From NCBI GenBank assembly GCA_964016885.1, contig CAXHJY010000710.1:22158-86157 (forward strand): a DNA stretch of 64,000 bases. Direction: 5' to 3'. The notes under the pieces were generated by a model. That model saw nothing but the letters and a program-made list of their open reading frames with translations, ran no database searches and was not told the DNA's origin. Within the stretch, counting starts at the first letter, position 1; every line of letters starts with the position of its first letter. The translations under genes and the position numbers were made by a program. Shown one piece after another: positions 57,424-59,004 of the stretch. The stretch is from Eledone cirrhosa (Eukaryota).

Positions 57424-57662
57424 ATATTTAGAAACACACAGATACATGCGGACGCACACATATATACATGAATGCATCCGCACCCAACTGTGAGTTAAGG
57501 GTGCCAACTTCACCGATGTTGCTCAATGAATGACTGGGACAGACCAATTCAGTTTGAACTAGACTGAACCAGTATCAGAGTTAAAAATACATTATGAAGA
57601 GAGAAGAAACATTTAGATATAATTAGTAATAAAATGTATCATACCTAAACTGTTCCTAAATT

Positions 57663-57748
57663 CCTCGACTACGTAGTTTCGTGGCATAAACAAAAACAAT
57701 ATATCAAAGATATAGAGTCCTTGCGAGGTCTGCCGACTTATCAAGAGG
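57663..57748 (-). ncRNA. Type I HHR, U3-A8 core, 57-nt stem II
   Basis: CCTC-TTGATAA-GTCGGCA...TGCCAC-GAAA-CT-ACGT-AG-TC-GAGG. Confidence 0.85.
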
Positions 57749-58253
57749 ATACCTCATTTTACTAGTCTCAAGAACGCGTCTACACGACGTGAGAAAGAAT
57801 CCCAAAAGGCGGAGGGGGAGATAGTCACGCGATATAACGGTCGAGAAACAGAGCTAAGCCTCTTATAACCACGAAGAAAATACCACGGAGGCGGAGGGGG
57901 TATTCATATCGAGGCCGTAGAAGAGGTAGTGAAGAAGGCGAGAAGTATGAGTAATGGAAGCCTTCCAGTTGTCCCCACACCTCAAAGATTGCTCGACCAG
58001 AGGGAGTTATTAATATATTTAGAAACACACAGATACATGCGGACGCACACATATATACATGAATGCATCCGCACCCAACTGTGAGTTAAGGGTGCCAACT
58101 TCACCGATGTTGCTCAATGAATGACTGGGACAGACCAATTCAGTTTGAACTAGACTGAACCAGTATCAGAGTTAAAAATACATTATGAAGAGAGAAGAAA
58201 CATTTAGATATAATTAGTAATAAAATGTATCATACCTAAACTGTTCCTAAATT

Positions 58254-58339
58254 CCTCGACTACGTAGTTTCGTGGCATAAACAAAAACAATATATCAAAG
58301 ATATAGAGTCCTTGCGAGGTCTGCCGACTTATCAAGAGG
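58254..58339 (-). ncRNA. Same HHR, unit 2
   Basis: Copy 591 bp from the first. Confidence 0.85.
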
Positions 58340-58844
58340 ATACCTCATTTTACTAGTCTCAAGAACGCGTCTACACGACGTGAGAAAGAATCCCAAAAGG
58401 CGGAGGGGGAGATAGTCACGCGATATAACGGTCGAGAAACAGAGCTAAGCCTCTTATAACCACGAAGAAAATACCACGGAGGCGGAGGGGGTATTCATAT
58501 CGAGGCCGTAGAAGAGGTAGTGAAGAAGGCGAGAAGTATGAGTAATGGAAGCCTTCCAGTTGTCCCCACACCTCAAAGATTGCTCGACCAGAGGGAGTTA
58601 TTAATATATTTAGAAACACACAGATACATGCGGACGCACACATATATACATGAATGCATCCGCACCCAACTGTGAGTTAAGGGTGCCAACTTCACCGATG
58701 TTGCTCAATGAATGACTGGGACAGACCAATTCAGTTTGAACTAGACTGAACCAGTATCAGAGTTAAAAATACATTATGAAGAGAGAAGAAACATTTAGAT
58801 ATAATTAGTAATAAAATGTATCATACCTAAACTGTTCCTAGTAT

Positions 58845-58930
58845 CCTCTTGATAAGTCGGCAGACCTCGCAAGGACTCTATATCTTTGATATATTGTTTT
58901 TGTTTATGCCACGAAACTACGTAGTCGAGG
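58845..58930 (+). ncRNA. Same HHR in the inverted segment
   Basis: Read directly on the plus strand. Confidence 0.85.
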
Positions 58931-59004
58931 AATTTAGGAACAGTTTAGGTATGATACATTTTATTACTAATTATATCTAAATGTTTCTTCTCTCTTCATA
59001 ATGT

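Follow-up and report, generated by a model that had tools for sequence, protein, structure and literature searches.

The locus described here raises the question of how a tandem sequence without an ORF is copied into new sites, with which enzyme and from what kind of template. We addressed it in a window of 64,000 nucleotides (the whole stretch of DNA that was analysed) and in copies of the same family elsewhere in the genome. A sequence-only reading of the locus had reported about 2.4 identical head-to-tail units of 591 nt with one hammerhead per full unit, no ORF, an inverted hammerhead-bearing terminal piece and ends that merge into (TA)n, and had interpreted these as a retrozyme inserted in the manner of PLEs and mobilised in trans. 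This anatomy was confirmed. Self-comparison within the window showed exact 591-nt periodicity, unbroken from 57422 to 58840 (~2.4 units), and the neighbouring periods of 585-596 matched only ~25-33% in the same array. The inverted piece (58841-59006, 166 nt), with a hammerhead cut site after 58926, is 100% identical to the unit and abuts the main array directly; (TA)n tracts flank the element at 56339-57427 and 59004-60844; and the longest ATG frame, taken on the unit as a circle, spans 75 aa. Two details were corrected: the ribozyme strand of the main array is the minus strand, and the element ends at 57422 and 59006, counting bases shared with the TA tract. The parts are listed below, where unit position 1 is the first base past the cleavage site.

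57422..58840, minus strand: main arm, 2.4 head-to-tail 591-nt units, with its 3' end at site A (unit position 245) and its 5' end at unit position 9
57422..57586, minus strand: tail of 165 nt at the site-A end of the main arm
57667..58257, minus strand: predicted monomer of 591 nt, cleavage to cleavage, and predicted circle (presumed to be released and ligated)
58841..59006, plus strand: inverted arm of 166 nt, running from unit position 506 across the hammerhead as far as site B (position 80)
56339..57427, unstranded: left (TA)n target tract, common to the Hydra-clade PLE
59004..60844, unstranded: right (TA)n target tract, common to the Neptune-like PLE

The unit has a GC content of 0.42 and no Pol III boxes on its sense strand, and the insertions compared have no terminal repeats other than the unit itself. 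It folds far better than shuffled sequences (z -5.6). The hairpins named in the earlier reading are all present in the sequence, but GCACCC..GGGTGC is absent from the best fold because a longer hairpin competes with it. A strict type I hammerhead descriptor, applied to both strands of the 64-kb window, gave exactly three matches, all of them in the element; these are listed together with the predicted hairpins next to the two 3' end sites.

58253..58340, minus strand: type I hammerhead 1, with a U3-A8 core, a 57-nt stem-loop II and a palindromic stem III; cleavage after 58258
57662..57749, minus strand: type I hammerhead 2; cleavage after 57667
58844..58931, plus strand: type I hammerhead 3, in the inverted arm; cleavage after 58926
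58187..58257, minus strand: predicted hairpin, unit positions 1-71, just 5' of site B (z -4.4)
58024..58087, minus strand: predicted hairpin just 5' of site A (z -5.7)

The core of the hammerhead, UUGAUAA (U3-A8), differs from CUGANGA. Its stem III, of 2 bp plus a tetraloop, is the palindrome CUACGUAG; stem II has a long extension, and the cleavage triplet is GUC. Rfam, searched with the whole window and with the element, returned no hammerhead at the gathering score or at E<=5, and the call therefore rests on the descriptor and on conservation; weak miRNA-like hairpin matches in Rfam at E<=5 were taken as chance. The descriptor matched 0/3000 dinucleotide shuffles of the unit. Among 16 copies, the most divergent at ~75% identity, the hammerhead stems were paired in 96% of cells, compared with 32-59% when slid; these stems are nearly invariant, and no compensatory change was found in them. 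We thus predict a self-cutting hammerhead RNA in each unit. Since the hairpin of unit positions 1-71 occupies the 3' strand of stem I, the ribozyme fold would be blocked in the predicted circle.

The element belongs to a large family. Genome-wide exact patterns gave 7,199 hammerheads of the same plan, 1,869 junctions between unit position 80 and TA and 1,038 between position 245 and TA, and reversed-pattern controls gave 0 matches. In a search with the unit, in which the best 40 of 682 candidates were scored, full-length matches were found at 99-100%. We took 39 loci from this search, 77 from the first 100 position-80 matches and 20 from the first 100 hammerhead matches, the last 20, all of which proved to be members of the family, being used for the ORF check only. 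Approximately 142 insertions or loci of >2,000 insertions were examined in this way, and the variant counts below cover 122 insertions, with L031 excluded because it duplicates the window locus. A sister subfamily of ~75% identity retains the whole unit, both ends and the hammerhead, which is 91% identical compared with 65-70% elsewhere in the unit; therefore, the lineage has long been ORF-less. The earlier remark on unit size held in part: 591 nt exceeds the range of 170-400 nt given by Cervera and de la Pena (2020), yet it falls within the 51-972 bp reported by Li et al. (2026), and the size is therefore unremarkable. Runs X4 and X5, which are filed under two other organisms, each contained only one 591-nt loop contig (depth ~8), which may stem from trace DNA or RNA; because tandem DNA gives the same loop, these were not counted as evidence.

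The 3' ends of the insertions always fall, with few exceptions, at one of two internal sites, B (~80 nt) and A (~245 nt past the cleavage site), and only the 5' ends vary, so that the permuted start points considered earlier were not observed. Among loci picked by the whole unit, 70/72 arms end at A or B, and 192/194 A/B ends run into TA, inside which target duplications are unreadable. Of 77 distinct inverted insertions, 71 pair A with B, one pairs A with A, none pairs B with B, and five have another end; about half of these loci were chosen via a B end, and what carries weight is therefore the absence of B among the partner ends. The same one-of-each rule was found in 6/6 Hydra and 6/6 Neptune inverted insertions that were fully seen, each with its own sites. 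The 165 nt between sites A and B form a PLE-type tail, at one end only. Both sites lie within AU-rich sequence, immediately 3' of a hairpin predicted to be strong, and have 2-7 nt in common with (TA)n. Across insertions, 5' truncation, head-to-head inverted arms and partial tandems were observed, and the length of the cDNA run is random (median 644 nt, up to 4.1 kb).

The junction positions of the two arms are unrelated (symmetric in 3/71) and the arm lengths are uncorrelated, which fits two separately primed cDNAs; fold-back self-priming, as proposed in PMC3846280, was accordingly rejected as the source of the inversion. At least 2 nt are shared in 13/30 clean junctions, compared with ~15% expected; extra or mismatched bases occur in 29/59 junctions, and 18 could not be anchored. 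Independent loci share no inversion junction or 5' flank, save one duplicated locus. At 58841-58848, the inversion junction of the window lines up with stem I, 3 mismatches being followed by 5 nt that match. This is what one would see had the main cDNA reached the cleaved end and annealed there, but it is a single case and may be chance. The unique flanks are themselves inverted repeats in 5/76 inverted insertions (L049, L048, L077, L033 and L085), probably because the element landed in the TA loop of a palindrome that was already there, or because an inverted duplication arose at insertion.

Two autonomous PLEs adjoin the element and are candidate donors of the enzyme.

46989..56346, unstranded: Hydra-clade PLE, a neighbour outside the element, with head-to-head arms, a 3599-bp unit and a tail of ~113-118 nt; candidate donor
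60846..63825, unstranded: Neptune-like PLE, a neighbour outside the element, with a 4117-bp unit and a tail of ~45-60 nt; candidate donor

The Hydra-clade neighbour has RWK, DKT and CxCx5C motifs as described in PMC8557442. Both families are young, with 119/120 (Hydra) and 82/84 (Neptune) scored matches at 100%. The arms of the Hydra-clade PLE and their own TA tracts form an 11.7-kb palindrome, its hammerhead is a canonical CUGAUGA one, and its frame is 785 aa long; the Neptune-like PLE has a 1217-aa frame in other copies and an outer end that varies over ~15 nt. Short head-to-head Neptune-like terminal fragments lie at 9467-9929 and 19562-19971 of the window, and at 2496-4181 there is another frame of a Hydra-like PLE, whose identity to the young family is 38%. 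As the earlier reading noted, the element and these neighbours are alike in target and inversion pattern; however, the unit adjoins autonomous PLEs because the (TA)n target is shared, and no sequence likeness to them was detected. A non-autonomous Hydra or Neptune derivative would resemble the pLTR of its partner, whereas blastn and nhmmer comparisons of the unit with both neighbours and with the masked window and loci found no likeness beyond an old family copy. A genome-wide pattern for a canonical core with the same stem III gave 0 matches. Hydra and Neptune are thus candidate donors only, because the spacing of the A and B sites (80, 245) differs from that of Hydra (~114, 228) and Neptune (~217, 265-280) and because each of the two PLE protein searches gave ~45,000 candidates. 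Of the two, the Hydra neighbour is the closer analogue, with a tail >100 nt, fixed ends finishing in TAT and membership of a TA-targeting clade. In the loci examined, ORFs near arms are separate insertions; an apparent Neptune link in L170 was discarded, as a TA/CA tract separates the two.

The copies also carry information on their template. Because priming is internal, any full unit must cross the cleavage site. The arms crossed this site 287 times with no slips, and the spacing was exact in 279/279 recognisable cleavage-site junctions, which indicates that the template was continuous there, either as a circle or as an uncut multimer. Where at least three units covered a site (n=191), the variant was present in all units 105 times, in one unit 76 times and in an in-between state 10 times. 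In addition, 27 insertion-private variants occupy all units of their insertion, and 20 of them span both arms. This all-or-one pattern suggests a one-unit bottleneck per cycle, with one template, or identical templates, for both arms. Together with the A>G skew described next, it favours a sense monomer circle as the template and lends indirect support to rolling-circle copying from a putative 591-nt circle. In the autonomous Hydra and Neptune insertions (L177-L192 and the window), private variants at nine loci were found in all tandem copies and both arms, at 30 and 5 sites; this hints at the same bottleneck in these elements, but unsampled subfamilies could explain it.

The direction of the all-unit variants was skewed. 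A>G accounted for 30/74 all-unit variant sites, and after dropping 18 sites (6 of them A>G) at which the older subfamily carries the minor letter and the direction is unsure, for 24/56, compared with 8 T>C (p 4e-5 given the base content of the unit, T 212 vs A 134). Removing the most changed locus left 21 A>G sites. Among one-unit variants, A>G made up 10/162 and T>C 23, and G>A and C>T showed no comparable skew among all-unit sites (7 vs 6). At A>G adenosines, a 5' G was depleted (1/24 vs 27/110) and a 3' G enriched (8/24 vs 16/110), although both tests are marginal (p 0.03-0.04, uncorrected). Depletion of 5' G together with enrichment of 3' G is the neighbour preference of ADAR. Counts on the tree gave A>G in 54/105 directed changes, a figure that conversion between copies can inflate, and A>G was recurrent at unit positions 107, 277, 340, 395 and 537. 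The surroundings of A>G sites were no more paired than those of other adenosines (p 0.31). All-copy variants of the autonomous PLEs, in nine Hydra and nine Neptune insertions, showed no A>G excess (12/66). From these sequence patterns, we consider it likely that the strand-specific A>G changes record copying from an edited RNA circle. If they do reflect editing, the template would have been the sense strand and a monomer, because edits on a multimer would be unit-specific.

Several other explanations of the same observations were weighed. That the units are an assembly duplication or a DNA-level satellite might be suspected from the 100% identity of the units in the window, the small contig and the presence of the locus twice (C737 and C904). 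We regard this as barely conceivable: the copies are dispersed over many contigs with differing lengths and junctions, at least two whole hammerheads stand in one arm in 65/122 insertions, and short-read contigs of run X1, which may be the assembly's own sample, contain a go-back joint of 591 as well as loose ends in TA at 58013 and 58178. The unit might instead be the pLTR, or a recent deletion product, of an unsampled ORF-bearing PLE, as retrozymes are related to pLTRs according to Li et al. (2026, 10.64898/2026.07.22.740005), only ~142 of >2,000 insertions were sampled, and candidates in each of the PLE protein searches number ~45,000. This explanation has a very faint chance of being correct. 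The hallmark of an autonomous PLE, an RT and GIY-YIG ORF between pLTRs, was not found in the loci examined: among family copies, a PLE ORF is joined to 0/46 single arms and to 0/20 hammerhead-picked loci, so that the attached copy envisaged in the earlier reading did not turn up. Moreover, PLE flanks in the masked loci and the window bear no likeness to the unit, the whole unit is alignable in the 75% sister subfamily, and no canonical-core relative was found. Remote descent of the unit from a pLTR is likely.

The form of the template and the origin of its variants allow further alternatives. The same family and PLE enzyme could have used an uncut multimeric transcript, with the hammerhead as a passenger and DNA-level conversion homogenising the units; in vitro, PAc takes uncut RNA as its template and still inserts normally when its hammerhead is mutated, and read-through at the junctions fits a multimer as well as a circle. 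However, a multimer would give unit-specific edits or mutations, whereas the A>G excess occurs only among all-unit variants (73 in all units, 3 in one, 2 between); in-between states are rare (10/191), junctions and 5' flanks are unshared between independent loci save the duplicated one, and the hammerhead is better conserved than the rest of the unit. We therefore consider an uncut template improbable. The RT of R2 can jump from the 5' end of a template to the 3' end, and repeated jumps on a cut linear monomer would produce the same one-unit bottleneck. This possibility fits the finding that cDNAs stop slightly more often than expected at the very start of the cleaved 5' end (11 at positions 1-15 vs 6.1, p 0.05 uncorrected), as well as an arm in L111 that starts exactly at position 1 and the start of the window's main arm at position 9, but jumps should add or lose bases, whereas 279/279 junctions are exact, and 96% of approaches pass the cleavage site; a jumping RT thus seems highly improbable. 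Concerning the editing step only, the A>G excess could come from a biased RT or polymerase, or from selection that tolerates G-U pairs, instead of from ADAR. The donor RT is only a candidate, errors of an earlier cycle become all-unit variants in the next, and A>G sites are not enriched in predicted stems. Nevertheless, the ratio of A>G to T>C is 4.7 here, compared with 0.7 among one-unit variants, 0.8 in Hydra and 0.3 in Neptune; tolerance of wobble pairs predicts C>T as well, which is the commonest one-unit change (36/162) but accounts for only 6/56 all-unit sites; and the neighbour bias and recurrence at the same sites fit a site-selective enzyme. A biased polymerase or selection is thus unlikely, though its probability is far from negligible.

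Taken together, the reading as a retrozyme with PLE-type insertion, mobilised in trans, was upheld across 142 insertions or loci. On the features tested, the element is a metazoan non-LTR retrozyme with a predicted hammerhead and a predicted circle; we have little doubt that it is protein-less and PLE-mobilised, and it is one insertion of a high-copy family for which a borrowed PLE RT-endonuclease probably copies a predicted 591-nt sense circle that was probably A-to-I-edited. In the cycle that we propose, a tandem copy would be transcribed, two hammerheads, which the palindromic stem III might unite into a double hammerhead, would cut at GUC, and the monomer would be closed by a ligase of the host, as in known retrozymes. 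In the circle, the 3' strand of stem I is predicted to pair into a hairpin, which would prevent re-cutting. A PLE protein may then nick both strands of (TA)n, as the biochemistry of PAc suggests, and the two 3' ends would prime at the fixed sites where the insertions are seen to end. Each cDNA would circle the template for a random length, consistent with the observed spread of lengths, and the two cDNAs would be joined end to end, yielding the head-to-head arms with the 165-nt tail on one that are found in the insertions; alternatively, a single cDNA would be joined to the target. Edits of the template, putatively by ADAR, would then appear as the A>G changes seen in every unit and both arms. 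A fuller version, in which a PLE dimer primes twice on one ADAR-edited sense circle and editing, not mutation of DNA, contributes more heritable change to the lineage than any other single source, is offered tentatively, at slightly less than even confidence. If it is true, the same bottleneck in autonomous Hydra and Neptune copies would imply that PLEs themselves move via circles in vivo.

Much of this framework has precedent: published work already covers non-LTR retrozymes, units of this size, U3-A8 cores and a link to PLEs. Like metazoan non-LTR retrozymes (PMC7229834; Li, Clavereau and Pollet 2026), the family consists of non-coding tandems with one type I hammerhead per unit, without LTR or ORF and apparently without PBS or PPT, occurs as dispersed mobile copies with 42% GC, below the limit of 45-50% for this class, and co-occurs with PLEs. 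It is set apart by a unit longer than the 170-400 nt tested in PMC7229834, by its U3-A8 core and 57-nt stem-loop II, and by a ribozyme predicted to be blocked in the circle, in which most metazoan retrozymes differ; its two fixed ends, inverted arms and A>G fixation have no match in the accessible parts of these accounts (PMC7229834; 10.64898/2026.07.22.740005), where RNA editing is named once as a possible cause of heterogeneity. The plant LTR retrozyme, with type III hammerheads in LTRs and a 4-bp TSD, is unlike the family, which is type I, tandem and without LTR. With EN+ PLEs of the Hydra and Neptune clades (Craig et al. 2021, PMC8557442; Gladyshev and Arkhipova 2013, PMC3846280), the family shares 5' truncation, partial tandems, a head-to-head inverted arm, a tail at one end, a (TA)n target and a hammerhead upstream of the ends, and according to the same sources pLTR sequences suffice for mobilisation in trans. 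It differs from them in lacking an ORF, in its 165-nt tail, four to five times the published 30-40 bp (113-118 in the local Hydra and 45-60 in the local Neptune), and in its mostly non-palindromic junctions (3/71 palindromic), unlike the antisense self-priming of PMC3846280. Non-autonomous Chlamys elements such as MRC1 (PMC8557442) are likewise protein-less and inserted in head-to-tail multicopies by PLE enzymes; however, their 3' end resembles that of an autonomous partner, a likeness not found here, and they mostly have no hammerheads. The U3-A8 minimal hammerheads of Schistosoma Cercyon PLEs (PMC4209133) show the same core covariation, palindromic helix III and dimer model, and the family differs from them in its stem III of 2 bp plus a tetraloop, its long stem II extension and its ORF-less tandem.

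The closest biochemical comparison for the two ends is with Poseidon PAc of Anolis (Frangieh et al. 2024, PMC11167929), where two internal RT start sites downstream of the hammerhead also define a tail, and one enzyme, a predicted dimer, nicks and extends both strands of an AT-rich target, to which we liken the family. The PAc start sites are non-homologous to the target and lie at an AC-rich stem-loop, whereas in the family the ends have 2-7 nt in common with (TA)n and are placed 3' of hairpins. It is debated whether PLEs and retrozymes are copied from circles, uncut multimers or antisense RNA: earlier work proposed antisense self-priming in 2013 (PMC3846280), a circle template for PLE tandems in 2014 (PMC4209133), and a retrozyme-PLE link with rolling-circle copying by PLE enzymes (PMC7229834; 10.64898/2026.07.22.740005), whereas the PAc hammerhead is dispensable in vitro and uncut RNA is the main template (PMC11167929), and cleavage was seen in one of nine tested dimers (Li et al. 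2026, 10.64898/2026.07.22.740005). The element itself is ordinary, and its value is as fossil evidence on the copying mechanism. Genome sequence is sufficient to ask of this family whether variants stand in every unit and in the two arms alike, and which strand they lie on; the result favours a sense monomer. For reconstitution, the family further offers a substrate of 591 nt whose start sites are mapped, and the same genome holds two young PLE families with open frames. Searches of open-access main texts turned up neither two-ended retrozyme insertions nor edited genomic copies; supplementary files from Craig et al. (2021), Frangieh et al. (2024) and Li et al. (2026) may contain the tails or the family.

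Other elements were observed along the way. A LINE (AP endonuclease and RT) at 33698-44374 of the window has its 3' 2.1-2.6 kb present three times at 96-99% with TA tracts between, and two of the three copies end in (TTCAAAGTTA)3; a PIF1 helicase frame (Helitron-like fragment) lies at 12885-14846 between 27/59-bp minisatellites. Further hammerheads, several of them U3-A8, were found at L144:6170, L074:2520, L119:2873 and L055:6804, and the one in L144, which stands in a repeated context, shares the plan with a long stem-loop II. Finally, a second ORF-less tandem family with a 483-nt unit was observed at L051:1473-2216 and L130:1195-2816; it shows no sequence likeness to the 591-nt family, and has a canonical core, a long stem-loop II and a palindromic stem III, and ends in TA ~80 nt past its cleavage site.
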